Positions 11,826 through 32,579 of a stretch of DNA of 34,644 nucleotides are shown one piece after another. The stretch is from Candidatus Zhuqueibacterota bacterium. Its GTDB lineage: Bacteria; BS750m-G25. Position 1 is the stretch's first letter. Each line of letters opens with the position of its first letter. The notes beneath the pieces were generated by a model. That model made no database searches. It saw only the letters and a list, made by a program, of their open reading frames with translations, and was not told where the DNA came from. Where the stretch lies: positions 1 to 34,644 of the forward strand of contig JADHWK010000022.1 in assembly GCA_016783505.1 (NCBI GenBank). The letters run 5' to 3'. Both the position numbers and the translations under genes were made by a program.

Positions 11826-14800
11826 ATGAAAGCAACAAAAGTTCTCACTATTTTTTTCTTTCTGTTCTCAGCTTATTTTGTGTTTGCTGGGACTACGGGG
11901 AAAATTGTAGGAATCATCACAGATTCTGAGAGTGGAGATCCCCTTATTGGTGTCAATGTGATCATTGAGGGGACTACCTTGGGTGCGGCCACCGATATGG
12001 ATGGATATTATGTAATCCTGAATGTTCCCCCTGGAAGGCACCACCTCAAGGCCAGCATGATGGGCTATAGGGCGGTTACCGTTACCGGCGTTCGGGTGAA
12101 TATTGATCTGACCACCTCGCAAGACATCAAGATGGCACCAATAGCTGTGGATTTGGGCGAAGTGGTGGTTGTAGCCGAGCGTCCGGTTGTTCAACCGGAT
12201 ATTTCAGCCAGTCAGGTAAATCTGAATATCAAAGACGTTGAAGCCCTTCCCGTTGTTAGTGTGGCGAGTGTTGTAGGATTAGAAGCTGGTGTTATTGACG
12301 ACTTAACGATCCGTGGTGGTGCTAGGGATCAGACAGCATTCGTGGTTGACGGTTTCACATTACGTGATGAGCGGGACAACACACCATATACTGGTATTAG
12401 CTATACGGCGGTTGATGAGATTCAAATTCAAACGGGTGGCTTTAACGCAGAATTTGGTAATATCCGCTCAGGTCTCATCAACGTTGTTACGAAAGAAGGA
12501 AGGCGAGATGGTTATCATCTGGGCTTAATAACGCGGTATAGACAGCCAGCACCAAAGCATTTCGGTCATTCAGCCGACTCACCGGAGTCCTATTGGATTC
12601 GTCCCTATGTGGATGATGCGGTTTGTTGGATGGGGACAACAAATGGCGCTTGGGACGAATACACACAAAAACAGTACGTTGAATTTGAGGGTTGGAATGC
12701 TGTATCTGAAAAGTTGCTTTTAGATGACGATCCGAATAATGATCTGACACCGGAAGCAGCCCAACGCCTTTTCATGTGGGAGCATCGAAGGGAATTGGAT
12801 ATTGTAAAACCGGATTATGATTTCGATATGAGTTTCGGCGGACCCGTTCCGTTTATTAGTGAGCCGCTTGGAAACCTTCGATTTATGGCATCTTACCGGA
12901 GGTCACAAGATATGTATATTATTCCACTTTCCGATGATGCCTATCGAGATTATAATGCACAACTAAAACTCACATCCAATCTTGCACCGGGAATGAAGCT
13001 GATGATTGAAGGAATTTTGGGGCAGGCAGCTGGCACGAATGATAACAATTCGGGCTATCCTGGGATATTCAGTGATTCTTGGAGCATTGGCAGTGCGTTG
13101 AGCAATGGTCCTAAATATATTGATGGCAGAATGTTTGGAACTGATTATTGGTGCCCCTCCAAAATTTCAAGAAATAGTATCGGCGCAAGATTTTCCCATG
13201 TGCTAAGCCCGACCACATTCTACAACGTAACCCTGCATCGGTTTGCATCCAGCTACGATACAAGTCCTGATCGTCTTCGTGATACATCCAGAGTGTATCT
13301 ATTCGGCAATAACTATTATGTGGATGAAGCGCCGTTTGGCTTTCAACCAAGCCCAAGTACTGGCATCGTTGGTTTAAGAATGGGTGTCGGGATGAGTAAT
13401 TCCCGGGATAGTAGCGAGGTTACATGGTGGTCCAGTAAATTCGATATTCATAGTCAGATTGATCGTCATAATTATATAAAGGCAGGGGTTGAGTTTATAT
13501 ATACCGATAACGCAGTCAACTACGCCTCCGTTGATGAATTCTTACCAAGCGGTCGAACAAAATCTAAATGGGAGACATATCCGGTACGGGGAGCCGTATA
13601 TGTTCAGGACAAGTTGGAGTTTGAGGGGATGATTGCGAACGTGGGCTTGCGTCTGGATTATTCGCACCCAGGTGGAGAGTGGTATGTATATGATCCCTAT
13701 GACAAGGCATTCTCAGCAAAATATTCGTTAGGGATTGACACTCTGCTCGCCAAAGAGCCGACAAAACGTATCTTTAATCTCAGTCCCCGGTTAGGAATTG
13801 CCTTTCCGATTACAGTGAATAGCAAGCTCTTTTTCAACTATGGGCATTTTAGACAAATGCCAACCCCGGAGAACCTCTATCTCCTAAGAAGAGAAACTTT
13901 AACTAATCATGTAACTCGGCTGGCAAATCCGAATAATCCACTTCCCAAAACGATCTCCTACGAATCGGGGTATGAGCATAATCTCTTTAATCAGTTCCAT
14001 GTTCGACTCATGGGCTATTATAAAGATTCGTCTCTGCAATCAAGGCTTGTGAGATATGTCAGCAGTGATAATAAGGTAAATTATAGTTTAACTGAGCCCA
14101 ACTCGTATCGGGACACCCGTGGTTTTGAACTTACAATTAGAAAGAATAGGGGGGAATGGGTTCGAGGGTTTATCAATTACACATACGAGGTGACCACATA
14201 TGGTAACTTCGGATTTTACTATTACTATGAAAATCCTGTTGAGCAGCGTAGGTATGAAAGTGAAACCCGATCCCATTACCAGGAGAAACCTATTCCCCGA
14301 CCGTATGCTCGTGCAAACATCGATTTCTTTACTCCAAAACCTTTTGGTCCTAAGTTCTTTGGAATCCATCCATTAGAAGATTGGCGATTGAACGTATTGG
14401 GAACCTGGCGATCTGGTTATCATCTTACCTGGACGGGTGGTGGAACTATTCCCGGAATAGTTAATAATGTTCAATGGAGGGACCACTATAATGTTGACCT
14501 TCGTTTGAGTAAAAGCTACCAAATAGGGGGCGCCGGTATTCAGTTTTTTATGGATGTAACGAATGTTTTCAATTTTAAATATATGACAAGATATGGTTTT
14601 GTTGATCCCATAGATTACAACGGCTATATGAAGTCTCTCCATTTACCGGCTGAAATTGGCGATGAGCTGGGTTATGGTAATATTCCTGGGGATGATCGCC
14701 CCGGGGATTATCGTACTGTTCCATATGAGCCGTACGATCCCGATGATCCAGATGAGGAGAGAAAGAAAAGGATTTTAGAAACGAAGGCTTATATAGATAT

Positions 14801-14879
14801 GCCCAATCAGCAATATCTCACCTTTCTTGACCCACGGAATATATTCTGGGGTTTGAAAGTATCTTTCGATATTAAATGA
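11826..14879 (+). CDS. TonB-dependent receptor 1 (N-terminal carboxypeptidase-regulatory-like domain, plug, barrel)
   Basis: Signal peptide, GTTGKI.G...GAATD.DG.Y.ILNVPPG, TonB-box-like GEVVVVAERP, plug IRGG and TGGFNAEFGN..SG.INVVTKEG, barrel motifs SPRLGIAFP, NYGHF, PRNI. Confidence 0.93.
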   Translation: MKATKVLTIFFFLFSAYFVFAGTTGKIVGIITDSESGDPLIGVNVIIEGTTLGAATDMDGYYVILNVPPGRHHLKASMMGYRAVTVTGVRVNIDLTTSQDIKMAPIAVDLGEVVVVAERPVVQPDISASQVNLNIKDVEALPVVSVASVVGLEAGVIDDLTIRGGARDQTAFVVDGFTLRDERDNTPYTGISYTAVDEIQIQTGGFNAEFGNIRSGLINVVTKEGRRDGYHLGLITRYRQPAPKHFGHSADSPESYWIRPYVDDAVCWMGTTNGAWDEYTQKQYVEFEGWNAVSEKLLLDDDPNNDLTPEAAQRLFMWEHRRELDIVKPDYDFDMSFGGPVPFISEPLGNLRFMASYRRSQDMYIIPLSDDAYRDYNAQLKLTSNLAPGMKLMIEGILGQAAGTNDNNSGYPGIFSDSWSIGSALSNGPKYIDGRMFGTDYWCPSKISRNSIGARFSHVLSPTTFYNVTLHRFASSYDTSPDRLRDTSRVYLFGNNYYVDEAPFGFQPSPSTGIVGLRMGVGMSNSRDSSEVTWWSSKFDIHSQIDRHNYIKAGVEFIYTDNAVNYASVDEFLPSGRTKSKWETYPVRGAVYVQDKLEFEGMIANVGLRLDYSHPGGEWYVYDPYDKAFSAKYSLGIDTLLAKEPTKRIFNLSPRLGIAFPITVNSKLFFNYGHFRQMPTPENLYLLRRETLTNHVTRLANPNNPLPKTISYESGYEHNLFNQFHVRLMGYYKDSSLQSRLVRYVSSDNKVNYSLTEPNSYRDTRGFELTIRKNRGEWVRGFINYTYEVTTYGNFGFYYYYENPVEQRRYESETRSHYQEKPIPRPYARANIDFFTPKPFGPKFFGIHPLEDWRLNVLGTWRSGYHLTWTGGGTIPGIVNNVQWRDHYNVDLRLSKSYQIGGAGIQFFMDVTNVFNFKYMTRYGFVDPIDYNGYMKSLHLPAEIGDELGYGNIPGDDRPGDYRTVPYEPYDPDDPDEERKKRILETKAYIDMPNQQYLTFLDPRNIFWGLKVSFDIK

Positions 14880-14917
14880 GTAATGTTAATTATAGCTAAT
14901 ATAAAATTGAGGTAATT

Positions 14918-17110
14918 ATGAAAATGGTTTTTTATGAAAAACGAATTTTAGTATTGCTTTGTTTGCTTTGTATTGTAACTTTTTTGGCAGGTCCAAATGA
15001 TTCCTATGCTCAATTCGATGTTAAATGGATGTCTGTCGGCTCACTTCATAATTGGTATTCCGAAATTGGCAGTGAGATAGAACATGGGTTTCAGCCAGTT
15101 CAACAATATGGGATGCAGTGGCCGGCTATCTATGAATATCAGGATATGCAAGCAGCTAAAGCGCTTTGGATCGGTTGCCGAGATTTTACAGATGAACGGG
15201 GTGATCTTTATCCTTTCAAGGTCGCACATGTCGGTCCGCGTGTGACAGGTGCCGGGGAGTTTTTTCCTATGAGGTTTGAAATAGTAAGTCGTTTTGAACC
15301 GCCATTGGTCTATGTGGACGGCGTTCAATCATATGAAAAGACCATTGACAATGATGATGTTGATCCATTAATGAAAGCCGATCGCATGATTATTAATGTG
15401 ACAAATTGTCAGGTTGGAATTACAATGACCCGTAAGATCATACAATTTAGCCAGCAGTACCATGATAACTACATTATTTCCGATTATAATTTTACTAACA
15501 CAGGTAATGTAGATGATGACCCAGAAATAGAATTACACGATCAGACGCTAGATAGTGTTTACTTCTTCTTCCAATACCGATGGGCTGTTAGCCGAGAAAC
15601 CCGTTATTTGATCGGTAATGCGACCGGATGGGGTATAAATTTTATGCTCGATGCCCGCGGAGACGGGGTAAAGGATGATCCACAGGATGAAGATTTCCGA
15701 GCTCAATATGGCTGGCATGGGAATTATCCACCATTTACAGAATACGATAATATTGGTGCGCCTATTTGCGACCCGAGTGGCTCCGCTGGTTATATCGGTG
15801 TGGCAGATACGGTGGGACGGCTTGGTTCGGCCCAATTCGTAGGCGCAGTAACCCTCCACGCTGATACATCCCCAACCGATCCATCAGATGATCCCTCTCA
15901 ACCTTCAACAACCATCTATGAATCTTCTGATGATCCTGAAACATCACAAAATGACCCCTATAATATTGTAAAGATGGAGTCTGAGTATGGTTGGATGTCA
16001 AAGGGGCATATGTCTCCCCGCCATGCAGATGTGGTCGAACCTGAGGGAAATTTTATCGAACCAACGGGCGATCCTGCTCTTGGTACTCCCGGTGGTTTCT
16101 CAGCTTGCAATGGCTATGGGCCTTATACATTGGGGCCGGGTGACAGCATTCGTATTGTGGTGGCTGAAGGAGCTTCGGGATTAAGCCGCCAGAAATGCAT
16201 AGAAATAGGTAGAATATGGAAAAAGGCATATGATGATCCGAATGAATCATACATCTTCGAATTGCCAGATGGGTCGACTATTACTGGGAGTTATAATGAA
16301 AAAAAAGCCAATCAGTTCAAAAATACATGGGTTTATACAGGAAGAGATTCTTTGTTTCAGACATTCCGACGAGCAATAGCAAATTACGAATCAGATTATG
16401 ATATTTCGCAGCCACCACAGCAACCACTCCCGCCGAGCATATTCAATGTAAATTCCGGGGGTGATAGGATCTCACTGACTTGGGAAGTCTATAATGGTGG
16501 CCAAAACCTGAACGGATTCCAGATCTACCGGGCTAAAGGCCAATATGATAGTACCTACCACCTCATATATGAAGCAGGTCCCGATGAACGAAGTTTTGAT
16601 GATACGCAATTAGAACGGGGAGTTTCATATTATTATTACATGGTGTCAGTCGGCGATGATATTCCAGCCGACCCAGATTTAAATATTCCAGCGGGCAGGC
16701 TACGTAGCAACCGGTATTACACGCAGACATACGACCCGGCATATCTGCAACGACCGGCAGGGAAAAAATTAAGTGGCATAAGTGTCGTACCAAATCCATA
16801 TAACATCTCGGCAGATACCGATAGATTGCTATTCCCGGGCGAACCCAATAAGATTGCTTTTTTCAATATACCCGGCTATTGTACTATTAAAATCTACACT
16901 GAAATTGGTGAATTGATAAAAACGATTGAACACACTAATGGAAGGGGGGATGAATATTGGCGTTGTACGACTTCTTCCGATCAAATCGTGGTGAGCGGTA
17001 TTTATATTGCGGCTTTTACAGTAACTAAAGATTATTATGATCCAGAGACCAATGAATTATTATACAAGAAGGGGGATACCGAAATTGTAAAATTTGTAAT
17101 AATTCGGTAA
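14918..17110 (+). CDS. Secreted TBDR-partner protein 1 with FN3-like domain and variant T9SS-like CTD
   Basis: SPI-type signal peptide; paralogous to 21825 and 30459; PP.PP.F.V.SGGDRI.L.W FN3-like domain; C-terminal VVPNPYNI...SGIYIA...KFVIIR. Confidence 0.85.
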   Translation: MKMVFYEKRILVLLCLLCIVTFLAGPNDSYAQFDVKWMSVGSLHNWYSEIGSEIEHGFQPVQQYGMQWPAIYEYQDMQAAKALWIGCRDFTDERGDLYPFKVAHVGPRVTGAGEFFPMRFEIVSRFEPPLVYVDGVQSYEKTIDNDDVDPLMKADRMIINVTNCQVGITMTRKIIQFSQQYHDNYIISDYNFTNTGNVDDDPEIELHDQTLDSVYFFFQYRWAVSRETRYLIGNATGWGINFMLDARGDGVKDDPQDEDFRAQYGWHGNYPPFTEYDNIGAPICDPSGSAGYIGVADTVGRLGSAQFVGAVTLHADTSPTDPSDDPSQPSTTIYESSDDPETSQNDPYNIVKMESEYGWMSKGHMSPRHADVVEPEGNFIEPTGDPALGTPGGFSACNGYGPYTLGPGDSIRIVVAEGASGLSRQKCIEIGRIWKKAYDDPNESYIFELPDGSTITGSYNEKKANQFKNTWVYTGRDSLFQTFRRAIANYESDYDISQPPQQPLPPSIFNVNSGGDRISLTWEVYNGGQNLNGFQIYRAKGQYDSTYHLIYEAGPDERSFDDTQLERGVSYYYYMVSVGDDIPADPDLNIPAGRLRSNRYYTQTYDPAYLQRPAGKKLSGISVVPNPYNISADTDRLLFPGEPNKIAFFNIPGYCTIKIYTEIGELIKTIEHTNGRGDEYWRCTTSSDQIVVSGIYIAAFTVTKDYYDPETNELLYKKGDTEIVKFVIIR

Positions 17111-17142
17111 TATGAAACAAATTTAAATAAATGGGTGGTCTT

Positions 17143-18159
17143 ATGAAAAAGTATATTACTTCAACTGTAGTTGGCTGTGCGTTTTTTATGCTTCTGTCAA
17201 CGGCAGGGTTAGGTCAATTACAGAAACTAGCTCAGACTGGGATGAAATTTCTAAGCGTTTCAACCGATGCTCGTGCAAGTGCCATGGGTGATGCCGTAAC
17301 CGCGCTTGAGGGTCATTCGTCTTCAATGTTCTTCAATCCATCAGGAATGGCACGCTTGAACAGCTTTGCGAATGTCTCGCTCGGTCAAGTCAGTTGGATT
17401 GCCGATATATACTATTCTTACGGCAGTGCCGCATTTAGCCCGGCAAAAGGACATTATGGGGTCTTTGGTATTACGTTCCTGTCAGTAGATTATGGAATTT
17501 TTAAGGGAACAATAAGAGATCCCGGTGAGCAAGGGTTCAAGGACACAGGTGACTTTAGTCCCAGTGCCACGGCTATTGGATTTGGCTATGCAAAAGCACT
17601 GTCCGACAAATTCTCAGTTGGTGGTAATATCAAATATGTTACACAGAACCTCGGAAATAGCATTATTGGATTTGACTTAGATGACAACTACCTGGAAAAG
17701 AGTTATTCCGAAGATGTTTATGCCTACGATTTTGGTCTTCTTTACCGCACCGGTTTTGAGAGTCTGACTTTTGGTATGTGTATACGAAATTTCTCAGAAG
17801 AAGTAAAATATGAAGATGAAGGTTTTCAACTGCCTTTGAGTTTCAAAATTGGTCTCAGTATGAATGTTTTGGATATTTATCAGGCTTTAGACAAGAAAAC
17901 GCAATCTCTCTTGCTTTCGGTAGATGCTGTTCACCCACGTGACTACCCAGAGCAATTGAATATTGGTGCAGAATATCTGTTTATGCGGAATTTTGCCTTG
18001 CGTCTGGGATATTCGTCGCCTAATGATGAACATGGCCTCTCTGCCGGATTTGGTTTCCAGCAGACATTTCGTAATTACATGTTGGCCTTTGATTATGCAT
18101 ACACTCCGTTCGAATTGTTCAATGATGTTCATAGATTTTCTGTACATTTCTCTTTGTGA
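17143..18159 (+). CDS. PorV/PorQ (UPF0164/FadL-like) family outer-membrane barrel 1
   Basis: Signal peptide; AQTGMKFL.V.TDARASAMG...FFNPSG family motif; alternating amphipathic strands; ends DYAY..F..F..VHRFS. Confidence 0.88.
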   Translation: MKKYITSTVVGCAFFMLLSTAGLGQLQKLAQTGMKFLSVSTDARASAMGDAVTALEGHSSSMFFNPSGMARLNSFANVSLGQVSWIADIYYSYGSAAFSPAKGHYGVFGITFLSVDYGIFKGTIRDPGEQGFKDTGDFSPSATAIGFGYAKALSDKFSVGGNIKYVTQNLGNSIIGFDLDDNYLEKSYSEDVYAYDFGLLYRTGFESLTFGMCIRNFSEEVKYEDEGFQLPLSFKIGLSMNVLDIYQALDKKTQSLLLSVDAVHPRDYPEQLNIGAEYLFMRNFALRLGYSSPNDEHGLSAGFGFQQTFRNYMLAFDYAYTPFELFNDVHRFSVHFSL

Positions 18160-18560: not shown

Positions 18561-21500
18561 ATGAGAATAACAAAAGTTTTAGCCATTTTTTTCTTTCTGT
18601 TCTCAGCTTATTTTGTGTTTGCTGGGACTACGGGGAAAATTGCCGGCAGGGTATTTGATGAAGACACCGGGGATCCTCTGCCCGGGGCTAATATTATCGT
18701 AGTGGGGACTACCATGGGGGCTATGGGGGACATGAACGGGGAATATTTTATTATCAATATCCCCCCGGGTAAGTATACGGTTAAGGTGACCATGATGGGA
18801 TATAAGGCCATGGTAGTGGAGAATGTGCGGGTCAGCATTGATATTACCACCTCCCAGGATTTTGCACTGCCGGCGACCATTGTGGACATCGGTGAAGAGG
18901 TGACCATTATAGCCGACCGTCCGGTTATTCAACCGGACGTTGCCGCAAGCCTGAGGAATATTAGTTCCAGTCAAATAGAAGCGCTGCCAGTAACGACGGT
19001 TACAGAAGTCATTGGTCTTCAAGCTGGTATTACTTCTGCTCTTGGAATTCGCGGGGGCAGTTCAGACGAGGCGCTTTTTATGGTTGATGGAATTGCTCTA
19101 AGGGACGAAAGAAATAATCAGCCCATTACCAAAATCCCTTTAAGTGCCGTAAAGGAAATTTCAGTTCAGACGGGGGGGTTTAACGCTGAATATCATAATG
19201 TTCGTTCCGGTGTTGTCAATATTGTTGCCAAAGAAGGAGACCCCAAGTATTATAGTGGAACGATCACAATCAAATACGGTCCTCCGGCGTCAAAACATTT
19301 TGGGATTTCCCCATATGATCCCAATTCCTTTTGGCTCCGTCCCTATCTGGACCCCGATGTCTCCTGGACTGGAACCTCAGGCGAAACCTACGATGACCTG
19401 AATTCGAACGGTGACTGGGATGAGGAAGAACCCTTTGTTGATTACAACGGAGACGGTGAGTGGACAGGATGGGACAAATATACACAGAGACAATATCCCC
19501 CGTTCGATGGTTGGAATGCCGTCTCTAACCGCACCTTACAAGATGATGATCCCACCAATGATCTTACCCCGGAAGCAGCTCAACGAATCTATCTCTGGGA
19601 GAAACGCAAAGAGGGGCATATTACAAAACCGGATTATAATGTAGACTTAGGATTTGGCGGTCCGGTACCCGTTATTAGCGAAAGGTTGGGGAATCTCCGG
19701 TTTTATACCTCATTTCGGAAAGAGCAAAATATGTATCTTATCCCCCTTTCCCGGGATGCCCTTACAGATCGTAGCTGGATGACTAAATTAACATCTGACA
19801 TTACCCCGTCTATGAAATTAACAGTATTGGGACTTTATGGAGAAACGTATGCCGCCGCATTTTCCAGATCCGGGGGGACCTCCTACATGGAAGATACCTG
19901 GGATGTAGCCAGCACAATTGACCGAGCAGGTCATACTATCACCTGGAGATTATTTACCAATGATTATTGGTGTCCCACATCCCGTTATTATAATGCGGTA
20001 TCAGCTAAGCTTACGCACGTGCTCAATCCCAGCACTTTTTATGAGGTTCTTCTAAAACGCGTTGGGAAAAAATATCATACTTTACCAGGTCGCCACCGTG
20101 ATCGGACAAAAAAATACGAGATTTTTGAAGGGTACTTTGTTGATGAGGCCCCTTTTGGGTTCGATGAAGACCCTGTTTGGGGCATTGATGGCATGGGGAT
20201 GGGGGGGTCGGTCAGTACATCACGGGATACTAGCGAAATTATCACCACCACAGCCAAATTTGATTTCGTAAGTCAAATAAATCACAATAATCAGATAAAA
20301 ACCGGCCTTGAATTTGTTTACGATGATTTCGACATGAAGTTTGGGATGGTAAATTTGGTTTTACCCGAAGGCAACACCTGGACATCAATCGAAAGAAAAC
20401 CATATAGAGGAAGCATCTATCTACAGGATAAAATCGAGTATAAGGGATTCATTTCTACCATTGGATTGAATATGGAATACAGTAATCCAAATGGGAATTG
20501 GTATGTTGTAGATATTTATGACCGCGGTCTCTATTCATCGGATTATAAATCTGAAGATGAACCAAATATTAACATGAAAAAAGCTAAATCAACCATTACC
20601 CTAAGTCCACGTCTGGCCGTATCCCATCCAATTACCCAAAACTCAAAGCTCTATTTTAATTATGGACATTTCAGACAAATGCCAACTTCTGAACGTCTTT
20701 ACAGGGTTCAAAGGGATGTAACTAATAAAATAGACTATATTGGCGATCCCACCCTGCCGCTTGCTAAAACAGTAGCCTATGAACTGGGATACGATCAAGC
20801 CCTTTTTAATATTTATCTGTTGCACCTGGCAGCATATTATAAAGACATTTCCGACCAGGAAGACTGGACCCGATATATTAGCTGGGATGGTAAGGTAAAT
20901 TATCGAACATTGACCAGTAATAGCTATGAAGATATTCGTGGCTTCGAAATTGATCTCACAAAGATGAGGGGAAGATGGATGACAGGAAATGTTAACTATG
21001 AATACAGGGTGGGGACGTCCGGCTATTTTGGCTTGAAAGAATACAATGAAAATCCGGTAGATCAACGAAATTATTTGCGGCAAAATCCTTATCAGGAAAA
21101 GCCTCTACCAAGGCCCAGAATTAAATCTAATATAGATTTTCACACCCCGCCTGATTTCGGTCCAAAATTGGCCGGACAAAGACCCTTAGGTGGCTGGCAT
21201 TTGAACTTTATAGCGAGATGGACTGCTGGTTCGTGGTTTACGTGGAATCCAAATAATATAGCGGGAATCGAATATAATGTTCAGTGGAAAGACTATCATA
21301 ATGTTGATCTTAAAATGTCAAAAACATTTCCCTACGGAAATGTTAAATTAACATTCTTTATGGATGTTAATAATCTGTTTAACGTAAAAGATTTTTCCGG
21401 AGAATCTTTTTATGATTCCCATGATTATGATTACTACATGGAGTCGTTGCATCTGCCCGCCAGCATTGGGGATGAACTGGGATACGGTAACATTCCCGGT

Positions 21501-21794: not shown

Positions 21795-21824
21795 GTGAGT
21801 CAATATCCAAGCAAAGGAGGTATC

Positions 21825-23915
21825 GTGAAACTAAAAACACGGGATAACAGATTACATCATATAATACTTATCGTATGCTTGATCCTACTGATTGGTTCCA
21901 TAAATATTGCGACTGGCGATGAAACAAAGTGGATTGCGGTAGGAATGTTGCATGACTGGTATTCGAGCCTTGGTTGTGAAATAGAAGTAGGTCGTCGGCA
22001 TCTAGTACCGGATCAACAAGATGGATTAATATGGCCGGCGCAATTTAGATATCAGGATTCTAAAGCTGCTAAGGCGCTGTGGATCGGTGCTACAAACTAC
22101 AATGATCCTTTAGTAGATAGAACCTTTAATTATAAAGTTGTTCATATAGGACCCAGGGTCTGGGATGAACAAAGTGAATCCATGCCGGTAGAATTTAAGA
22201 TGATCGGGAGATTTGATCACCCTAATGTTTTGGTGGACGGAGTCCCCGCCTCCAATATGGTTCAAATGGACGTTGTGGATGAAATAGACGAGACGCTCCC
22301 AGCGGATAGAATGATTTATAACGTGGTAAATACTTCCATCGGCATTACGCTAACCCGTAGAATCTATGCGTTTAGCCAGCAGAATCACGATAATTACTTT
22401 ATCTATGATTATATCTTTAAAAATACCGGAATATGCAATAAGGACGGTAGCATCACACATGAACAGACTCTAGAAGGCGTTTATTTCTTTTTTCAATACC
22501 GATATGCCCCTTCCCGGGAGGGCGGCCCCTACGGTGATGATTATTGGTTGCCCCAGTCAACGTCATGGGGTCATAATACAATGAACGACGCCCGTAATGA
22601 ATCTCCACCATATTCTGAGGATGCCCCCCCCCGTTGTCTTTTTTCCTGGCATGGACTTCATTCCAAAGCTGCTTTTGACAATATAGGGGGACCCTATGGT
22701 GGGGAGGGGGGAGACGGACATCTGGGCGCTGCCCAATATGTGGGGGTGGTGACCATACATGCGGATAAATCGGCAACGGACAACTCCGATGACCCATACC
22801 AACCCACTACTACCCAATACTTAGGATCGGATGAGCCAATTACGTCGGGTAATGATCAGTTTAACGATGCTAAGATGACGGTAGAGTATGAGGCAATGAC
22901 TGCAGGTCATCCTGAAGAAAGACATGCTGATGCCGTAGGTGACGGCTATGCTGATGAATGGGGCGGCACCCCGGGCGGCTATTCCCATGGCCAGGGTTTC
23001 GGTCCCTATACTATCGCCCCCGGTGATAGTATTCATATCGTCATTGCAGAAGGGGTGGCCGGACTTTGTCGCGATTCCTGTTACACCATTGGTGCTAGAT
23101 GGTTAGAAGGAACTGGACCATTTATATTGCCTGATGGCTCCACCACGAACGATAAGGATGAGTATAAAAAAGCCTGGGTGTATACCGGTCAGGATTCGTT
23201 ATTTCAAACTCTTGAAAGGGCTATTGCAACCTACGATACCAATTTTATAATTCCCCAACCACCATCGCCTCCCGACTATTTTGAGGTAAACTCGGGTGGG
23301 GATCGCATTACTCTCACCTGGTCCAATAGTGCAGAATCATGGCCCAACTTCGGAGGCTATAAAATTTATCGTGCTATTCACGTACCGGATACTACTTATG
23401 AGGAGATTTTCGCCTGTGGAGTAGGCACGAATCATCCAGAAATCGTTTATGAATTTCTTGACACCTCACCGGTACGCGGTTTTGATTACTATTATTATAT
23501 CGTATCTTTTGAAGATGATATAACGAATGATGTTGACCCTGGAGTTCGGCTGGAAAGCAGTATGTTTTACACAATGACCAATGAGCCCGCCTATCTTCGT
23601 CGTCCTCCTGGCGAAAAATTTGCAGATATCAGAATCGTTCCCAATCCTTATAATATAAGAGCCCGTGAATTGCAATATGGTGCGAGTGGTCCTGATAGAA
23701 TTATGTTCCTGAACATACCCCCGGTTTGTACGATTAAAATTTTTACTGAACGGGGCGATCTCATTCAAACTATTGAACATACGGATGGCACCGGGGATGA
23801 AGCATGGAATTCGGTAACTTCCTCCAGGCAGGTTGTGGTCAGCGGTGTATATATTGCTGTTTTCGAAACGCCCGATGGGAAGAAAGCGATTAAAAAATTT
23901 ATAATTATACGCTAG
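21825..23915 (+). CDS. Secreted TBDR-partner protein 2 with FN3-like domain and variant CTD
   Basis: GTG start after AAAGGAGGT; paralogue of 14918; C-terminal IVPNPYNI...KFIIIR. Confidence 0.85.
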   Translation: MKLKTRDNRLHHIILIVCLILLIGSINIATGDETKWIAVGMLHDWYSSLGCEIEVGRRHLVPDQQDGLIWPAQFRYQDSKAAKALWIGATNYNDPLVDRTFNYKVVHIGPRVWDEQSESMPVEFKMIGRFDHPNVLVDGVPASNMVQMDVVDEIDETLPADRMIYNVVNTSIGITLTRRIYAFSQQNHDNYFIYDYIFKNTGICNKDGSITHEQTLEGVYFFFQYRYAPSREGGPYGDDYWLPQSTSWGHNTMNDARNESPPYSEDAPPRCLFSWHGLHSKAAFDNIGGPYGGEGGDGHLGAAQYVGVVTIHADKSATDNSDDPYQPTTTQYLGSDEPITSGNDQFNDAKMTVEYEAMTAGHPEERHADAVGDGYADEWGGTPGGYSHGQGFGPYTIAPGDSIHIVIAEGVAGLCRDSCYTIGARWLEGTGPFILPDGSTTNDKDEYKKAWVYTGQDSLFQTLERAIATYDTNFIIPQPPSPPDYFEVNSGGDRITLTWSNSAESWPNFGGYKIYRAIHVPDTTYEEIFACGVGTNHPEIVYEFLDTSPVRGFDYYYYIVSFEDDITNDVDPGVRLESSMFYTMTNEPAYLRRPPGEKFADIRIVPNPYNIRARELQYGASGPDRIMFLNIPPVCTIKIFTERGDLIQTIEHTDGTGDEAWNSVTSSRQVVVSGVYIAVFETPDGKKAIKKFIIIR

Positions 23916-23961: not shown

Positions 23962-24549
23962 ATGATGTCTACCAATTTTATTAAAAAACTTGTCGCCTTG
24001 GTTGTCTGTATCCCGCTTATTGTTTTGCTTATTAGTTGTGAGGAATATCAAGAGGAAGATTTTACCATCGCAGACATGGATGCTAGAGCCTGTGAGCTTT
24101 TTGAGGATACTGTGAGCGTTAAAATCCCTAGATTTCCATTGGTTAGTTTCGACTCAACCTGGGTGGACTCTGCGGTTTATGAAAATGTACTCGAAATATT
24201 AGATTCTTTAGAAGCAAATGAAATAATAGTAACGGATAGCGACACGAGCTTTACAATCACCACGGCGGAAAACGTTGAGATGTATTATATTTGTTTCTTT
24301 ACGGAACTGAACGAAGTGGTAATTTTCTCCAATTATTTTACGGACATGAATATTATAGATGCAGATGGAACTGTTATTAATAAAGAAAGTAGTGTAATTT
24401 CGCTGGAAACAGTCGCTGGTTGCTCTGAAATAAGAACTCGTAATGTTTATAATCTTTCAGAACGGAAGAATTTGCTGCAAATTGTAAAGATTGAGTCGGA
24501 TCAGACGGGGGGAAAACCTTTTCTACTGGTGATTTTACCGAGTCATTAA
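23962..24549 (+). CDS. Hypothetical lipoprotein
   Basis: SD AAGGAG; signal peptide with LISC lipobox followed by acidic EEYQEED. Confidence 0.8.
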   Translation: MMSTNFIKKLVALVVCIPLIVLLISCEEYQEEDFTIADMDARACELFEDTVSVKIPRFPLVSFDSTWVDSAVYENVLEILDSLEANEIIVTDSDTSFTITTAENVEMYYICFFTELNEVVIFSNYFTDMNIIDADGTVINKESSVISLETVAGCSEIRTRNVYNLSERKNLLQIVKIESDQTGGKPFLLVILPSH

Positions 24550-24607: not shown

Positions 24608-25591
24608 ATGAGAAAGAAAATCTTAAGCTTTATTGTGATAATTTTGGCTATTACCCTGGTTATATCAAATGGTTACTCACAAAAAAAATTGGCACAGACC
24701 GGATTTCAGTTTTTGAGCATAGGGCAAGATGCTCGGGCATCCGCCATGGGTGAAGCGTTCACAACCGTCGAAGGGGTTTCCAGCGCCCTTTTTCACAACC
24801 CTGCGGGGATGGCAAGGCTTTCCTCTTTCGTGGATGTGGCTGCCAGCCAAAACAATTGGATTGCAGATATTAAACACAACTCTCTCAGCATCGCATTGAA
24901 TCCCTTGCAGGGAAGATATGGTGTGTTTGGCATCAGTGCGATGTGGGTGGACTATGGGGAAATCCAGGGGACTATGGTTTGGGAAAACGTAGATGGTTAT
25001 ATAGATACGGAGGTATTTGAACCTAAAGCAATTGCTGTTGGGATAGGTTATGCCAAGTATTTAACCGATAGATTTGCAGTAGGAGGACAAATTAAGGAAG
25101 TCGCCCAGTCTTTGGGAAAAAGTGTTATACCTGAAGAAGGGGCTAAAAAGAATATCGCCTCGGCTTTGGCATTTGATTTTGGCACCATATATCGAACGGG
25201 CTTTAAGAGTTTATCTTTTGGTATGTCAGTCCGCAATTTTTCAGAAGAACTGAAATTTGAAAAAGAGGGTTTTCAGCTCCCCCTCACTTTTAAAATTGGT
25301 GTTTCAATGGATGTATTTGATTTTTACATGAAAATGCCTGAGGGACATTCTCTTCTGATGGTCATGGATGCAGTTCATCCGCGGTCATATCCGGAATATA
25401 TTAATTGGGGCGCTGAATATTTATTTATGGACATGTTTGCCTTAAGGGCAGGATATGTGTCCAATCAAGATGAATACGGTTTGACCTATGGTTTTGGCAT
25501 GCAGAAATTTGGGTTGGCAATCAATTATGCATACACCTCGTTTGGCGTTTTTGATCCTGTTCAAAGATTCACCATTCGATTTTCGATATAG
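24608..25591 (+). CDS. PorV/PorQ family outer-membrane barrel 2
   Basis: KKLAQTGFQFLSIGQDARASAMG...FHNPAG; paralogue of 17143. Confidence 0.88.
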   Translation: MRKKILSFIVIILAITLVISNGYSQKKLAQTGFQFLSIGQDARASAMGEAFTTVEGVSSALFHNPAGMARLSSFVDVAASQNNWIADIKHNSLSIALNPLQGRYGVFGISAMWVDYGEIQGTMVWENVDGYIDTEVFEPKAIAVGIGYAKYLTDRFAVGGQIKEVAQSLGKSVIPEEGAKKNIASALAFDFGTIYRTGFKSLSFGMSVRNFSEELKFEKEGFQLPLTFKIGVSMDVFDFYMKMPEGHSLLMVMDAVHPRSYPEYINWGAEYLFMDMFALRAGYVSNQDEYGLTYGFGMQKFGLAINYAYTSFGVFDPVQRFTIRFSI

Positions 25592-27134: not shown

Positions 27135-27145
27135 GCCCGACTAAA

Positions 27146-27334
27146 TGGATTCCTGCTTTAAAAACTGTCGGCCCCAAAGGTCTTGGGACCCGAAGGGTCT
27201 TGCCTGCCCGTAGGCGGATCACTCAGACGAGCCGTATGGCCGACCGGTCCGCCGTGCCCGGTCCCAAGATCGCTTTGCGACTAGGGTAGGAGGCTACGCT
27301 CCCAGGGGGAAACGATCTGGGGACAGGAATGACA
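27146..27334. repeat. GC-rich nest of REP-like palindromes
   Basis: Outer TGGATTCCTG...CAGGAATGACA; inner TCTTGGGACC/GGTCCCAAGA, GACCCGAAGGGTC, TCGCTTTGCGA, GGAGGCTACGCTCC. Confidence 0.55.
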
Positions 27335-27378
27335 AGGGGTCAACTGTTACAATAATTGGATATTAACCTTCCGCGATA

Positions 27379-30300
27379 ATGGAAATTTATTCTACAAAGA
27401 GATCCCTCCTGTTGGGGATCTTTGTCCTTCTGTTTTTGCCTTATTCTGCATTTGCCGGGATTACCGGAAAGATTGCCGGTCGAATTACCGATGCTGACAA
27501 TGGTGAAGGGCTTCCAGGTGTAAATGTAATCATCGAAGGACTGGCGATAGGGGCGGCAACGGGTATTAATGGCTACTACGTAATCCTGAATGTCCCCCCC
27601 GGGACTTATACGCTCAAGGCTTTAATGATGGGTTATACGACTGTAACCACAACGCACGTCCGTGTCGTTATGGATCTTACCACAACCATTGACTTTCAGA
27701 TGCATTCAGAAGTATTGGACATTGGTGAAGTAACAGTCGTCGCCGAACGCCCAGTGGTTGCCCCCGATATTTCAGCCAGCCAGATGAATGTGGAAGCCAA
27801 GACGATAGAAAACCTGCCCGTTGTAAGTATTTCCGAGGTCGTTGAGCTTCAAGCTGGTATTGAAGCCGGCACTCAAGGACCGGTTATTCGTAGTGGTGGC
27901 CCTCATCAGACAGCATTTATTGTGGACGGATTCAAACTTAACGATGAGCGGTCCAACATCCCCTACACTGCTGTCAGCTTGAGTTCGGTTAAGGAAGTGC
28001 AGATACAGACCGGAGGATTTAACGCAGAATATGGTAACATGCGTTCAGGTGTCATCAATGTTGTCACTAAAGAAGGGGAACGCAATCGTTACGGTGGACG
28101 TGTTACCCTTCGTTATCGCCCCCCCGCCCCAAAACATTTCGGCCCTTCAGTCTATGATCCTGATACATATTTCACCCGTCCCTATATGGACCCTGCTGTC
28201 TGTTGGACTGGTACTGCAAATAGTGCTTGGGATTCATATACTCAACGTCAGTATCCGAGCTTTGAAGGCTGGAATGCGATCTCGGTGGCCACCTTGCAAG
28301 ACGCTGATCCAACAAATGACCTTACACCCGAAGGGGCAAAGCGCTTGTGGGAGTGGCAGCATCGTCGGCAGGGTGATATTGTAGACCCTGATTACACCGT
28401 TGATGTCGGTTTTGGGGGGCCAATCCCCTTTATCAGTGAAAAGCTTGGGAACCTACGATTCTACGCTTCCCATCGCACCGAACGGGATATGTTCATTTTC
28501 CCCCTTTCTCGTGATAGTTATAATGATAGTTTTACGCAGCTTAAACTTACTGCTAACATAAGTCCTATGATGAAATTGATTTTCACCGGGATGTATGGTG
28601 AAACCCATTCTGTTTCCCCGTATCAATGGAAAACTACTCCAACCGAACGAGTTCTAAGAACTCCCTATGAAGTTGCTGATTATGTAAGCAGCAGTTCCGG
28701 GAATAGTAACATATATATGCCCGGATGGTTTAGTCCTACCTTAATTAACCGGAATATTATCGGGCTAAAATTTAACCATGTGTTGAGTTCGAGAACATTT
28801 TATGAAATAATTGTTCAAAATAATATAAATAGATACAATACATTTAAAATGGCGGATCGTGATACGACAAAGAATAATGAGATTATTCCCGGCTATTATG
28901 TTGATGAGGCACCTTACGGTTATTGGGGATATGGTGTCACCGGTATTGATGGTATGAGGATAGGGGGATGGATGAATTTAGGTCGGGATTCAAGTGTGAT
29001 TAAAACAACTACTCTCCGCTTTGATTTCACAAGTCAATTAAATAATACTAATCAGTTCAAAACTGGTTTAGAAATTGTCTATAATGATTACGACATCAAG
29101 TCATCTACAGAAAATCCTTCCATGAGTACCTGGCGTCGAAAACAGGTCTATGAGATTTTTCCTTATAGAATTGGTGCCTATGTTCAGGATAAACTGGAAT
29201 TTCAAGGATTTATTGCCAACGTCGGCGTACGACTAGATTATTCCGATGCCAACTCCATGCGCTATCAATTGGACCCCTATGATGAATATTTCAGTCAGGG
29301 TTTTGGAGACTTAATAGAGCCAGAGGCACCCACCGAAGATGCGAAACCCAGTTTGAGTTTGAGTCCACGCCTCGGGGTTGCCCACCCCATTACCGTAAAT
29401 TCCAAGTTGTATTTCAACTACGGCCATTTTCGTCAAGAACCCGCTTCCTCTTACAGATTTCGGCTTCAGAGAGAAGCCAATGGCCTGGTAACGTCAATAG
29501 GAGACCCCAACCTTGAAACGGAAAAAACGGTGTCTTATGAATTAGGATACGAGCATGCGCTTTTCAATGATTATTTGCTCCACTTGGCAGCATATTATAA
29601 AGACGTTACAAATCAGCCTGGCTGGGTTTATTATCAAGACATCAAGAATGCGGTGCAGTATGATAGGGCTGCTAATAATAACTACGAAGACATCCGCGGA
29701 TTTGAGGTAACTTTGACTAAACGTGTTGGAAGCTGGATTGGCGGTTTTATCAATTATACGTATGATGTTCGGACATCCGGATATTTCGGTTTGACAAAAT
29801 ACTATGAGGATCCCCAGGAGCAGCGGGACTATTTGAGATTAAATCCCTATCAGGAAAAACCACATCCACAACCTTATGCTCGAGCAAATTTAGACTTGCA
29901 TACCCCCGACAATTTTGGTCCTGGGTGGTTAGGTTTTAAACCATTAGGTGATTGGAATTTGAATATTTTAACAAACTGGTCAGCCGGGACTTATACAACT
30001 TACAATCCGAATCAAATACCTGGATTGGTTGATAATGTTCAGTGGAAAGATAGACACAATATTGACTTGCGATTTTCAAAAAATATTAAGGTAAGTAAAT
30101 ACAATTTTCAATTCTTTTTGGATGTTACGAACGCTCTCAATAATAAATTCCTTAGCTATGCCGGTTTCTCAGATAACTATGATTATCTTGATTATATGGA
30201 ATCATTGCATTTCTCTTGGGAAGATGGAGTTGAACACGGTAACGATAGGGTGGGTGAATACCGTAAAGAGGGTGTTGATTATGAACCGTATGATCCCACC

Positions 30301-30432
30301 GATCCGACAAAAACCCGAGAAGATTTACAGAGGATATTAGATACCAAAGCCTATATTGATATGCCCAATTTAACCTATTTCACCTTTCTCAATCCGCGGG
30401 ATATTACATTCGGCATTAAAATATATTTCTAA
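27379..30432 (+). CDS. TonB-dependent receptor 3
   Basis: Same architecture and motifs as receptors 1 and 2; ends KIYF. Confidence 0.93.
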   Translation: MEIYSTKRSLLLGIFVLLFLPYSAFAGITGKIAGRITDADNGEGLPGVNVIIEGLAIGAATGINGYYVILNVPPGTYTLKALMMGYTTVTTTHVRVVMDLTTTIDFQMHSEVLDIGEVTVVAERPVVAPDISASQMNVEAKTIENLPVVSISEVVELQAGIEAGTQGPVIRSGGPHQTAFIVDGFKLNDERSNIPYTAVSLSSVKEVQIQTGGFNAEYGNMRSGVINVVTKEGERNRYGGRVTLRYRPPAPKHFGPSVYDPDTYFTRPYMDPAVCWTGTANSAWDSYTQRQYPSFEGWNAISVATLQDADPTNDLTPEGAKRLWEWQHRRQGDIVDPDYTVDVGFGGPIPFISEKLGNLRFYASHRTERDMFIFPLSRDSYNDSFTQLKLTANISPMMKLIFTGMYGETHSVSPYQWKTTPTERVLRTPYEVADYVSSSSGNSNIYMPGWFSPTLINRNIIGLKFNHVLSSRTFYEIIVQNNINRYNTFKMADRDTTKNNEIIPGYYVDEAPYGYWGYGVTGIDGMRIGGWMNLGRDSSVIKTTTLRFDFTSQLNNTNQFKTGLEIVYNDYDIKSSTENPSMSTWRRKQVYEIFPYRIGAYVQDKLEFQGFIANVGVRLDYSDANSMRYQLDPYDEYFSQGFGDLIEPEAPTEDAKPSLSLSPRLGVAHPITVNSKLYFNYGHFRQEPASSYRFRLQREANGLVTSIGDPNLETEKTVSYELGYEHALFNDYLLHLAAYYKDVTNQPGWVYYQDIKNAVQYDRAANNNYEDIRGFEVTLTKRVGSWIGGFINYTYDVRTSGYFGLTKYYEDPQEQRDYLRLNPYQEKPHPQPYARANLDLHTPDNFGPGWLGFKPLGDWNLNILTNWSAGTYTTYNPNQIPGLVDNVQWKDRHNIDLRFSKNIKVSKYNFQFFLDVTNALNNKFLSYAGFSDNYDYLDYMESLHFSWEDGVEHGNDRVGEYRKEGVDYEPYDPTDPTKTREDLQRILDTKAYIDMPNLTYFTFLNPRDITFGIKIYF

Positions 30433-30458
30433 TTTGCCTTAACCCTGGTAAAATATAA

Positions 30459-32579
30459 ATGATAGATAACCTAAAAAAGAATTTTGTATTGAAAGTTTTT
30501 TTTTGGCTCGGCATTGGGTTTTTGGTTTTTGGTCAATTTGTTCCGGTTTCTGCCCAGGTCGGCGAGACTGAAAAGAGATATATTCGAATCGGGTCTCTGC
30601 AGAGCCATTTTTCGGCTTATGGCTCAGAACGGGCCTGGAACAATGTGTATTATGAAGGGTTGAGATGGCCGGCTGATTATCCTTATCAGGATAATTCCGT
30701 TATTAAGCGCTCCTGGATAGCTGCCCAGGATTTCACCGATGCAGATGGACAGGACTGGAGTGTGTATGGAATCTATTTCGCCATGGGTTATGTTGGTCTA
30801 TCCTTATTTCCCATGGAGCTAAAACAGACGGCCAAATTTGAGCCGCCCACCGTCTATGTTGACGGTAAGAATTTAACCGCACCCTATGCCGACGACGTTG
30901 ATGAAATCAATCCGGATCAGATACCCGATCGGATCGTTACCAATGTGGTGAATACCTCGCTCGGTCTTACCATGACCCGGCGCATCTTAGCTTTCAGTCA
31001 GCAGTACCACGATAATTATTTTATTAAGGAATTTACGTTTACCAATACGGGTAATGTAGATTCTGACACATTAATCGAACTGAATGCACCGTTAACAGGG
31101 GTACGAATAGGCTGGGGTACTCGCTACAGCGTATCTCGCGAGGGCTCATTTAAAATAGGTGATGGACAATCCTGGGGTAAACATTCATGGGTTACCAGGC
31201 GTGGCGAGGATTACCCTGCCCATGCATCTGATATAATAACTGAACAAAATCCGATTGTGGAATGGCTTCGCTGCGGTTTTAGCTGGGCCGGACAGTCGGA
31301 AATCAATGCATTTGACAACATCGGTGCTCCTGATATTTCCGGCACTGGACGACTATGTGCGCCGCAGCATGTCGGCACCGTTTGTTTGCATATTGACAAG
31401 AGCGCAACCGATACGACCGATGACCCCTACCAGCCTGTTTTTTTGGGTTGGCATGCAGGCGACACCTATCCAAGTGTAGGTAATTTGCAAACGTCAGACG
31501 AAATTAATATGATTAAGTTATACGACATGTTAAGCGGATTTCCACATATGGGTTTAGGCGGTACCGATCGGATGGATGAAACGTATTTAGAATCCATAAC
31601 ACATAGATTAGATCCTTATACTATTCACAATGATGGTGGCGGAACAAATGTAATGATTTGTTACGGGCCTTTTGATTTGCAGCCGGGTGAAAGTATCACC
31701 ATCGTTGAAGCCGAAGGGATTTCCGGTATTTGTCGTGATTCCTGTTATTCAATTGGCGCAAAATGGCTTGCTGGTGTAGGACCCTTCCATTTACCAAAAG
31801 GCTATGACCCTTCAACAACTAATGATGCCGATTATTATAAAAATGCCTGGGTATATACAGGTAAAGATTCCATATTATTGACGTTTGGGAGGGCCAAACG
31901 CAATTTCGACATGGGCTACGATATTCCACAACCACCATTGCCTCCGCCCTTGTTCGATGTGAAATCAGGGGGTGATCGAATTAGTCTTTCATGGAGCCCA
32001 TCCGAAAGTGAAGATTACCCAGGTTTTGCAGGATATAAAATTTATCGGGCTCTCAGCAAACCAGATACTACACATGATGAAATAGCCACCTTAGGACCGG
32101 GTATTACCTCTTTCGATGATATGACAGCGGATCGCGGCAAAGCCTATTATTACTATATTGTTTCTTTTAACGATGGCTCTAACAACACTGCGGAGGAAGC
32201 AAATCCTGTTGGGCCTCTGTACAGTAGCCGATTTTATACCAAAACCACCGAACCCGCCTATTTGCGTCGTCAAGCTGGGGAATCGCTGTCAGATATTCGT
32301 GTGGTTCCGAACCCTTATAACATTAAAGCCCGTGATTTGCAGTATCCTGGCGAGCCGGACAAAATTATGTTTTTAGACATCCCTGCCTATTGTACTATTA
32401 AAATATTTACAGAACGGGGTGATTTAATTCAAACCATCGAACATACTGATGGCAGCGGAGATGAGGAATGGAATTCGATCACTTCATCCCGACAGGTGGT
32501 TGTCAGTGGTATTTATATCGCACATTTCGAAACGCCTGATGGCCAAAGCATCTATAGGAAATTTGTTATCATTCGATAA
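30459..32579 (+). CDS. Secreted TBDR-partner protein 3 with FN3-like domain and variant CTD
   Basis: Signal peptide; paralogue of 14918 and 21825; C-terminal VVPNPYNI...KFVIIR. Confidence 0.85.
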   Translation: MIDNLKKNFVLKVFFWLGIGFLVFGQFVPVSAQVGETEKRYIRIGSLQSHFSAYGSERAWNNVYYEGLRWPADYPYQDNSVIKRSWIAAQDFTDADGQDWSVYGIYFAMGYVGLSLFPMELKQTAKFEPPTVYVDGKNLTAPYADDVDEINPDQIPDRIVTNVVNTSLGLTMTRRILAFSQQYHDNYFIKEFTFTNTGNVDSDTLIELNAPLTGVRIGWGTRYSVSREGSFKIGDGQSWGKHSWVTRRGEDYPAHASDIITEQNPIVEWLRCGFSWAGQSEINAFDNIGAPDISGTGRLCAPQHVGTVCLHIDKSATDTTDDPYQPVFLGWHAGDTYPSVGNLQTSDEINMIKLYDMLSGFPHMGLGGTDRMDETYLESITHRLDPYTIHNDGGGTNVMICYGPFDLQPGESITIVEAEGISGICRDSCYSIGAKWLAGVGPFHLPKGYDPSTTNDADYYKNAWVYTGKDSILLTFGRAKRNFDMGYDIPQPPLPPPLFDVKSGGDRISLSWSPSESEDYPGFAGYKIYRALSKPDTTHDEIATLGPGITSFDDMTADRGKAYYYYIVSFNDGSNNTAEEANPVGPLYSSRFYTKTTEPAYLRRQAGESLSDIRVVPNPYNIKARDLQYPGEPDKIMFLDIPAYCTIKIFTERGDLIQTIEHTDGSGDEEWNSITSSRQVVVSGIYIAHFETPDGQSIYRKFVIIR

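Follow-up and report, generated by a model that had tools for sequence, protein, structure and literature searches.

TonB-dependent transporters and their surface partners drive nutrient capture in Bacteroidota. In the SusC/SusD (RagA/RagB) arrangement, a TonB-dependent receptor (TBDR) of ~1000 amino acids (aa) bearing a CarboxypepD_reg domain forms an obligate pair with a surface partner encoded downstream, with accessory lipoprotein genes and tandem duplication of the unit. A different kind of surface retention is described for the system of type IX secretion (T9SS): in the attachment complex of Porphyromonas gingivalis, the T9SS substrate PorZ retains its C-terminal domain (CTD) and is anchored at the surface by PorQ, a barrel of the PorV/PorQ family, and the CTD of PorU is likewise uncleaved (PMC10947112). 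In Flavobacterium johnsoniae, one PorV serves all type A CTD cargo, and the CTD contact surface in the solved complexes is poorly conserved apart from one Lys (PMC10994853), whereas type B CTD cargo has dedicated, genetically linked PorP/SprF-like shuttles (PMC12618676; PMC9143113), such dedicated shuttles setting the destination of the cargo (PMC12618676). Here we analyze a locus with likenesses to all of these systems, located on contig JADHWK010000022.1 of a Candidatus Zhuqueibacterota bacterium (assembly GCA_016783505.1), the full 34,644 nucleotides of which are referred to below as the window. It consists of three cassettes, each with a TBDR gene followed by the gene for a secreted partner protein with a PorZ-like tail, two of them with a PorV/PorQ-family barrel as well. 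The interpretation that we put forward, holding it with as much doubt as confidence, is that the cassettes constitute a triplicated, conserved outer-membrane uptake module of non-Bacteroidia bacteria of the Fibrobacteres–Chlorobi–Bacteroidetes (FCB) group, in which a T9SS-exported partner would be retained on a PorV paralogue beside or over the TBDR and capture substrate there.

The three cassettes are co-oriented on the + strand between positions 11826 and 32579, and their core genes are as follows.

11826–14879, + strand: TBDR1, 1017 aa, comprising an N-terminal CarboxypepD_reg extension, a plug and a large barrel
14918–17110, + strand: PART1, 730 aa, secreted non-lipoprotein partner with a beta-rich domain, a fibronectin type III (FN3) domain and a PorZ-like CTD
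17131–18159, + strand: PORV1, 342 aa, PorV/PorQ-family outer-membrane barrel
18561–21794, + strand: TBDR2, 1077 aa, Pfam scores of 63.3 bits (CarbopepD_reg_2) and 34.6 bits (Plug)
21795–23915, + strand: PART2, 706 aa as listed
24608–25591, + strand: PORV2, 327 aa, PorV/PorQ-family barrel
27379–30432, + strand: TBDR3, 1017 aa, Pfam scores of 65.9 bits (CarbopepD_reg_2) and 32.3 bits (Plug)
30459–32579, + strand: PART3, 706 aa, with a beta-rich domain at ~35–490, FN3 at ~498–571 and the CTD at ~614–704

This layout had been noticed in an earlier interpretation made from the DNA letters and their open reading frames (ORFs) alone (the sequence-only reading), and it is confirmed by the ORF coordinates, the TBDR and partner genes being separated by 38, 0 and 26 bp in cassettes 1, 2 and 3, respectively. 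Pairwise identity amounts to 47–50% among the TBDRs (48–50% for TBDR1 against TBDR2 and TBDR3), 41–48% among the partners and 52% for the PorV pair; with BLASTP E values from 0 to 5e-146, the members of each set score as true paralogues, far beyond chance. The true start of PART2 is probably internal, its hydrophobic signal beginning at about residue 22. In agreement with the same reading, Pfam and NCBIfam searches recognized no SusD, glycoside hydrolase or regulator between 11.8 and 34.2 kb, nor were the elements that define a polysaccharide utilization locus (a SusC/D pair with carbohydrate-active enzymes and a regulator) recognized there.

A scan of species-representative genomes with the partner family matched at least 649 stretches and yielded at least 604 relatives confirmed by tblastn; the locus counts given here and below rest on 73 loci (L001–L073) obtained from the best 80 of these, ranked by their match to PART3. 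The metagenome-assembled genomes (MAGs) that carry the relatives are labeled as KSB1/Zhuqueibacter, Fidelibacterota/Neomarinimicrobiota, Calditrichota and Melioribacteraceae/Ignavibacteriales, and in a few cases as Cytophagia or Bacteroidota. BLASTP comparison of the locus ORFs with the window proteins showed that the entire multi-cassette arrangement recurs. In a set of 107 partner copies whose alignments span 400 aa or more, a TBDR lies directly upstream in all 59 that have at least 3.2 kb of upstream sequence, and a TBDR also precedes each of the 34 copies for which the upstream sequence is shortened. These observations support the TBDR and the partner as an obligate gene pair and in this respect the sequence-only reading. 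Paralogue types are concordant in 90 of 93 TBDR–partner pairs, the three discordant cases (L029, L030 and L051) each combining PART1 with a TBDR2-type piece whose match is a short, low-identity fragment; likewise, whenever a PorV gene lies within 900 bp downstream of a PART1 copy, it is of the PORV1 type (9/9). The concordant pairing indicates that the cassettes were duplicated as units before the lineages split. PART3 identity ranges from 58 to 74% across the related loci, and the median identity to the window copy is 56–63% for the partners, 59% for the TBDRs, 52–55% for the PorV paralogues and 37% for both a lipoprotein with a TIG domain and a 440-aa CTD protein encoded nearby, by which measure no gene of the locus is more conserved in L001–L073 than that of the partner. 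In one Ignavibacteriales MAG (L056:4838-11295), the TBDR3, PART3 and TIG genes are broken into several short ORFs, which could be pseudogenes or result from sequencing-error frameshifts.

The C-terminal tail of the partner resembles T9SS sorting domains. All three partners contain VPNPYNI and terminate in KF(V/I)IIR (KFVIIR in PART1), and among 240 homologues VPNP[YF] is found in 238 and a K[FL]xxxR terminus in 217. Canonical tails of the NYPNPFN type occur in the window as well, in a 905-aa protein (~10.1 kb) and the 440-aa protein (~33.9 kb), which score 44.3 and 31.9 bits against the type A model TIGR04183, with a cut-off of 23. Full-length PART2 (16.6 bits), PART3 (16.2) and even the isolated PART3 tail (20.0) remain below that cut-off in the type A test (TIGR04183 / PF18962), and PART1 has no TIGR04183 match, bearing out the claim that the variant tail differs from the canonical CTDs of the same contig. 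Despite this divergence, hhalign comparison of 43 partner tails with 47 canonical CTDs from the related loci gave a probability of 92.4% (E 5.2e-7, 79 columns). Of the same 43 tails, 37 match the C-terminus of PorZ (NF052228, positions ~666–757; best E 9.3e-9), 27 match TIGR04183 and 16 match the C-terminus of PorU, with no match to the type B model TIGR04131 at E <= 10; of the 47 canonical CTDs, 46 match TIGR04183 and 7 the PorZ C-terminus. Profile comparisons thus identify the partner tail as a distinct subclass homologous to the T9SS type A CTDs and most similar to the uncleaved tail of PorZ.

The barrels encoded after the partners of cassettes 1 and 2 are, as had been claimed for them, members of the PorV/PorQ family, with scores of 202 (PORV1) and 196.3 bits (PORV2) against the family model NF033709 (cut-off 90). 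Both fall short of the cut-offs of the equivalog models NF033710/NF033711 for PorV (90.4 and 81.1 bits; cut-off 250) and PorQ (100.8 and 93.7 bits; cut-off 220) as well as that of PorV2, and PORV1 matches the F. johnsoniae PorV structure (6h3i_F, E 2e-8). A complex of PORV2 (residues 25–327) and the last 114 residues of PART2, each with its own alignment, was modeled with a score of 0.91 (0.92, 0.91 and 0.91 in the individual runs), compared with 0.01 for the best of three controls, in line with the docking of the tail on the barrel loops foreseen by the sequence-only reading, although the result may reflect memory of solved structures. Among complexes of solved structure, 116 of 157 attained this mark, as did 2 of 215 mismatched pairs; the calibration is a rough one only, the alignments being self-supplied. 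The three runs share at least 98% of the contacts, with a pLDDT of at least 83 for the partner. On the tail, the modeled contacts involve the RIVPNP, FTERGDLI, QVVVSGVY and KKFIIIR stretches, and on PORV2 they fall on segments that alternate with short turns; from these alternating loop lengths we infer that the contacted segments are the extracellular long loops. The partner tail is accordingly predicted to sit on the long loops of its co-encoded PorV paralogue. Interface residues are more conserved than the others on both sides (0.74 vs 0.61 for PorV, p 8e-4; 0.77 vs 0.62 for the tail, p 5e-4), and this strong conservation fits a dedicated pair. In the model, the near-invariant Lys109 of the tail contacts PorV residues 86, 88, 116 and 119; similarly, in the solved translocon, Lys1110 of RemZ contacts Asn87 and Phe115 of PorV (PMC10994853).

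Upstream of the tail, the partner is a protein of no named family. PART1–3 have no Pfam or NCBIfam family, the N-terminal domain gave no Pfam match at E <= 1 among 30 partners, and the partner profile matched FN3 domains alone among the PDB sequences. All window copies carry a signal peptide and, as the sequence-only reading had stated, no lipobox; a permissive search found lipobox-like matches in 11 of 236 homologues starting with M, all within the hydrophobic core before an AQ-type cleavage site. An AlphaFold2 model of PART3 built from a 30-sequence alignment (pLDDT 82.5, pTM 0.80) begins with a signal helix, followed by a beta-rich domain (~35–490) that closes with a long helix, then by FN3 and, at the C-terminus, a beta-sandwich. 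A fold search with the whole chain was dominated by FN3 tandems and uninformative for the N-domain. Refolded alone (pLDDT 83.9, pTM 0.88), the N-domain resembles beta-sandwich domains of GH94 phosphorylases, GH116, GH36, a polysaccharide lyase and cyclic glucan synthase, but the likeness is partial (TM-score 0.24–0.36 when normalized by query length, root-mean-square deviation >11 Å) and therefore provides a carbohydrate-binding lead, not an assignment. Many His, Asp, Arg and Trp residues of the partner are invariant.

The family extends well beyond the cassettes. A profile search of 1.84 billion representative sequences returned 653 matches at E <= 1e-30, the counts at looser thresholds being inflated by FN3 repeats. 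In the databases, its members are named "fibronectin", "fibronectin type III domain-containing protein" or "hypothetical protein", and the matches in a protein atlas are unnamed clusters alone, from Fidelibacterota, Gemmatimonadota and Zixiibacteriota. Pfam analysis of 20 longer relatives that contain the N-domain and FN3 module revealed a Por_Secre_tail domain in 15 at E <= 0.001, at or above the 27-bit cut-off in 10, and no domain in the other 5. In 7 of the 15, the module is N-terminal, and 6 of these 7 also contain repeats of the beta-helix, pectinesterase or PMP type; the remaining 8 have the module after BNR, sortilin or PSII_BNR propellers. Given this frequent association, the module appears to be habitually T9SS cargo, and in the cassette form, the PorZ-like tail occupies the place of the canonical CTD of the longer relatives.

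The receptors are built like SusC, with a CarboxypepD_reg extension, a plug and a length of ~1000 aa, yet their model scores place them outside the SusC subfamily. In Pfam, TBDR1 has CarbopepD_reg_2 at 67.8 bits and Plug at 22.0 bits, slightly below the cut-off of 23.9 bits that TBDR2 and TBDR3 exceed; in the 30-member family alignment, Plug and CarbopepD_reg are present in 30/30, with barrel matches to OMP_b-brl_3 in 10/30 and to TonB_dep_Rec_b-barrel in 3/30. In the PDB, the family profile finds the plug of Cir (E 3e-8) and the barrel region of PhuR (E 7e-4), and TBDR3 has partial barrel matches to TBDR families in NCBIfam. Between the N-terminal extension and the plug, the family consensus includes a conserved EEVVVVAERP-like stretch, which may be a TonB box akin to those of SusC-type receptors. 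Membership in the SusC/RagA subfamily was considered and rejected: the three TBDRs reach 59.1, 48.4 and 44.3 bits against TIGR04056, for which the cut-off is 368.25, and the N-terminal part alone accounts for the match.

Set against the described systems, the locus shares with SusC/SusD the obligate receptor–partner pair, the accessory lipoprotein genes and the tandem duplication, and differs from it in the low TIGR04056 scores, in the proposed protein–protein anchoring through a PorV paralogue and in a partner that is more conserved than its barrel. A SusD/RagB identity of the partner can be rejected, since the protein has no SusD match in Pfam, a mostly beta fold in the model and no conserved lipobox, and gene position alone fits. 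The second likeness is to PorZ–PorQ and PorU–PorV, with which the cassettes share the PorZ-like tail and the PorV/PorQ-family barrel, retention of the partner's CTD being a proposal here. The passenger is unrelated to PorZ, which has two propellers, and is instead a beta-rich domain with FN3; moreover, the barrels score under the PorQ and PorV equivalog cut-offs, and the genetic linkage is with TBDRs instead of components of the T9SS. Compared with the docking of type A CTDs on PorV in the SprA translocon of F. johnsoniae, the tail is homologous and its predicted docking likewise involves PorV loops and a conserved C-terminal Lys, but the barrel is co-encoded and the interface is strongly conserved on both sides, unlike the F. 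johnsoniae situation, where a single PorV receives every type A cargo and the surface used has little conservation (PMC10994853). The dedicated, genetically linked barrel recalls the type B shuttles, on which the sequence-only reading had modeled a distinct CTD/barrel pairing. That proposal held in part: a tail subclass and its modeled docking on the PorV paralogue support a distinct pairing, and the type B/SprF parallel is rejected, with none of the 43 tails matching TIGR04131 and barrels of the PorV/PorQ and not the PorP/SprF family, so that PorZ–PorQ is nearer. In the literature, full-text searches judged from titles, the starts of abstracts and some passages found no description of a TBDR accompanied by both a PorV paralogue and a partner bearing a CTD. 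In the text consulted, the Caldithrix abyssi genome paper mentions TBDRs as vitamin-related only, and a SAR406 paper refers to TBDRs and to many genes with Por sorting domains without mentioning this cassette. The parts (TBDR, T9SS CTD and PorV/PorQ barrel) are thus of known kinds, and their combination is new to the sources searched.

Under the proposed mechanism, the partner would cross the outer membrane through the T9SS and be collected by its own PorV paralogue, which would keep it bound noncovalently, as PorQ keeps PorZ. The beta-rich domain would thereby be held beside or over the TBDR, where it could capture an oligomeric substrate, probably a glycan or an amino-sugar polymer, for TonB-driven import, and two lipoproteins and a propeller protein with a type A CTD encoded in the locus may serve as accessory surface binders.

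Several observations weigh against such a capture module. The loci examined come from the 80 best matches to PART3 and are hence biased to orthologous synteny. A PorV gene is found within 2.5 kb downstream of the partner in just 46 of 86 copies, and the window contains two PorV paralogues for three partners; the barrel would therefore need to be shared. In 95 partner copies with at least 1.5 kb of downstream sequence, the next labeled ORF is most often of the PorV type (39 copies), followed by the TIG lipoprotein (22), the 440-aa CTD type (15), the small lipoprotein of cassette 2 (11), a TBDR (4) and the 905-aa type (1); 3 copies have none. The docking could be a product of model memory because PorV–CTD structures have already been solved (8gl6 and related entries; PMC10994853), and the score, as a model output, speaks for likeness and not for binding. 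The N-domain shows only weak fold likeness, and no site for a ligand was recognized in it. Finally, the partner is more conserved than its own TBDR in 57 of 59 pairs (mean identity 63.8% vs 57.9%). SusD diverges faster than SusC, and the conservation of the partner sequence is more in keeping with an enzyme or a fixed part of a machine than with an adaptive lid.

The same observations bear on the alternatives. The partner could be ordinary T9SS cargo encoded beside a TBDR, with the PorV paralogue acting as a mere specialized shuttle and the tail being cleaved, so that the partner would be released or attached to lipopolysaccharide and feed the receptor in the manner of a surface glycan-binding protein or a secreted enzyme of a polysaccharide utilization locus, without forming a lid. 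This is a possibility to be taken seriously, even if we lean against it: the homology of the tail to type A CTDs, the canonical CTDs of the N-domain relatives, the role of dedicated shuttles in deciding cargo destination in F. johnsoniae (PMC12618676) and the enzyme-like conservation of the partner, including its invariant His, Asp, Arg and Trp residues, would all be expected of such cargo, but the tail and the PorV loops are conserved far beyond the needs of a transient signal (compare the type A surface; PMC10994853), the closest match of the tail is to the uncleaved one of PorZ, and the strict adjacency to the TBDR argues for a stoichiometric partner. An improbable alternative is that the TBDR-like barrel, the partner and the PorV-like barrel import nothing and instead make up an outer-membrane complex of a structural, adhesive or surface-layer kind. 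The synteny of all three cassettes across phyla at an identity as unusually high as that of PART3, reminiscent of core machinery, and the lack of a recognized catabolic enzyme or regulator in the window locus would suit such a complex; the plug domain in every member of the TBDR family alignment points instead to TonB-driven transport, as does the EEVVVVAERP-like stretch before it if that stretch is a TonB box. Least probable of all is a periplasmic partner whose C-terminal sandwich is an Ig-like domain with no role in secretion, next to FadL-type channels for small hydrophobic molecules, for although the window tails score below the TIGR04183 cut-off and the FadL-like barrel family includes PorV, the only matches of the tail are to the C-termini of PorZ and PorU and to type A CTDs, the relatives bear canonical CTDs at the equivalent position, and the predicted interface lies on the long-loop face of the barrel, which is the CTD-binding side in the solved translocon and which we infer to be extracellular.

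Additional genes accompany the cassettes or precede them in the window.

23962–24549, + strand: small putative lipoprotein, 195 aa, with an LLISC lipobox followed by acidic residues
25614–26819, + strand: putative lipoprotein that combines an IPT/TIG domain with a C-terminal part resembling a propeller, 401–443 aa, listed from 25488
32840–34162, + strand: propeller-like protein carrying a T9SS CTD of the canonical type A, 440 aa, after cassette 3
7623–10340, + strand: protein in which two Golvesin_C domains are combined with a type A CTD of the canonical form, 905 aa
3425–5395, + strand: TPR protein, 656 aa, best NCBIfam match PorW/SprE
10432–10872: RlpA-family gene

The first two, both lipobox-bearing ORFs of cassette 2, were omitted from the sequence-only reading; their synteny, like that of the 440-aa CTD protein, is conserved in the related loci. 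The 195-aa protein has no Pfam or NCBIfam match, and its homologues (23–32% identity) lie between PART2 and PORV2 in 13 related loci. The second protein has a Pfam TIG match (E 1.1e-8), weak propeller matches in the PDB and homologues at 56 places in the related loci. As listed from 25488, its ORF overlaps PORV2 by 104 bp; this start is probably a first-ATG artifact, because the lipobox-bearing signal peptide (MKKVIVV...FVAGC) begins at ~25614. In both lipoproteins, acidic residues directly follow the lipobox Cys (CEEYQEED and CEPDYPD), a feature that we take to resemble the surface-export signal of Bacteroidota lipoproteins. PDB sequence searches gave no match for the 905-aa and 440-aa CTD proteins, and in L009, L011 and L046 a homologue of the former is located on the downstream side of the cassettes. 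About 6 kb upstream of the cassettes, the 656-aa TPR protein, with the N-terminus ...FLGWSC, matches PorW/SprE with 154 bits (E 5.8e-45), below the cut-off of 250, and also the YbgF and BamD TPR models; it may be a core component of the T9SS. Together with the two proteins above the TIGR04183 cut-off, this PorW/SprE-like protein gives indirect signs of a T9SS in the window. No Rfam match was found anywhere in the window, and a scan for promoters and terminators remained at the level of shuffled sequence (57 vs 49.3 +/- 7.2 and 13 vs 16.5 +/- 4.7, respectively). GC content shifts from ~0.48–0.53 in the housekeeping part (1–12000) to ~0.40–0.45 over the cassettes (12000–34000).

In some related loci, the cassettes contain extra ORFs of ~330–380 aa, located between PART2 and PORV2 in loci labeled as Neomarinimicrobiota (L052:2959-4032, L053:2958-4028, L055, L058, L059, L062 and L063) and between the TBDR and PART1 in loci labeled as Calditrichia (L029:684-1715, L030, L043, L051 and L060). 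Eleven of these 12 have no Pfam match at E <= 1e-5, that of L051 has a weak RskA_C match, and those of L052 and L029 have no NCBIfam match. Among 110 unlabeled flanking ORFs of at least 220 aa, 9, in 7 related loci, encode enzymes of peptidoglycan or amino-sugar turnover: NamZ (L017:3405-4637, L023:13123-14370 and L028:11791-13053), Amidase_3 (L011:16539-18071 and L046:17000-18055), two LD-carboxypeptidases and one S13 DD-carboxypeptidase (L033:3-4842), and a GH20 hexosaminidase between two cassettes (L072:844-3453). These events are not independent, because several of the loci share synteny, and the same 110 ORFs include 4 GHL10, 2 alpha-amylases and 12 PD40 propellers. The one cultured species of Fidelibacterota, Fidelibacter multiformis, needs exogenous muropeptides (PMC11652737); the searched text of that paper names no route of uptake, with no occurrence of "transport" or "uptake". 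Peptidoglycan fragments as the substrate are suggested by these gene neighborhoods as a lead only. A bolder version of the proposal, which we regard as speculative and rather unlikely, is that the cassettes represent an unrecognized class of TonB-dependent uptake machine, with a T9SS-exported capture subunit that is held permanently on its own PorV/PorQ paralogue by a retained PorZ-like domain; such a machine would be a core outer-membrane feature of at least four FCB-group phyla and may import fragments of peptidoglycan or related amino-sugar polymers.

The outer-membrane feeding of Fidelibacterota/SAR406, Calditrichota, KSB1 and Ignavibacteriota, which are largely uncultured, is poorly known. 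If the proposed module is real, it would be a second, lipoprotein-independent way of giving a TBDR a surface partner and a possible alternative to SusC/SusD. It would also extend anchoring of the PorQ–PorZ type from the housekeeping of the T9SS to nutrient uptake and provide a function for a large protein family now named "fibronectin" or "hypothetical".

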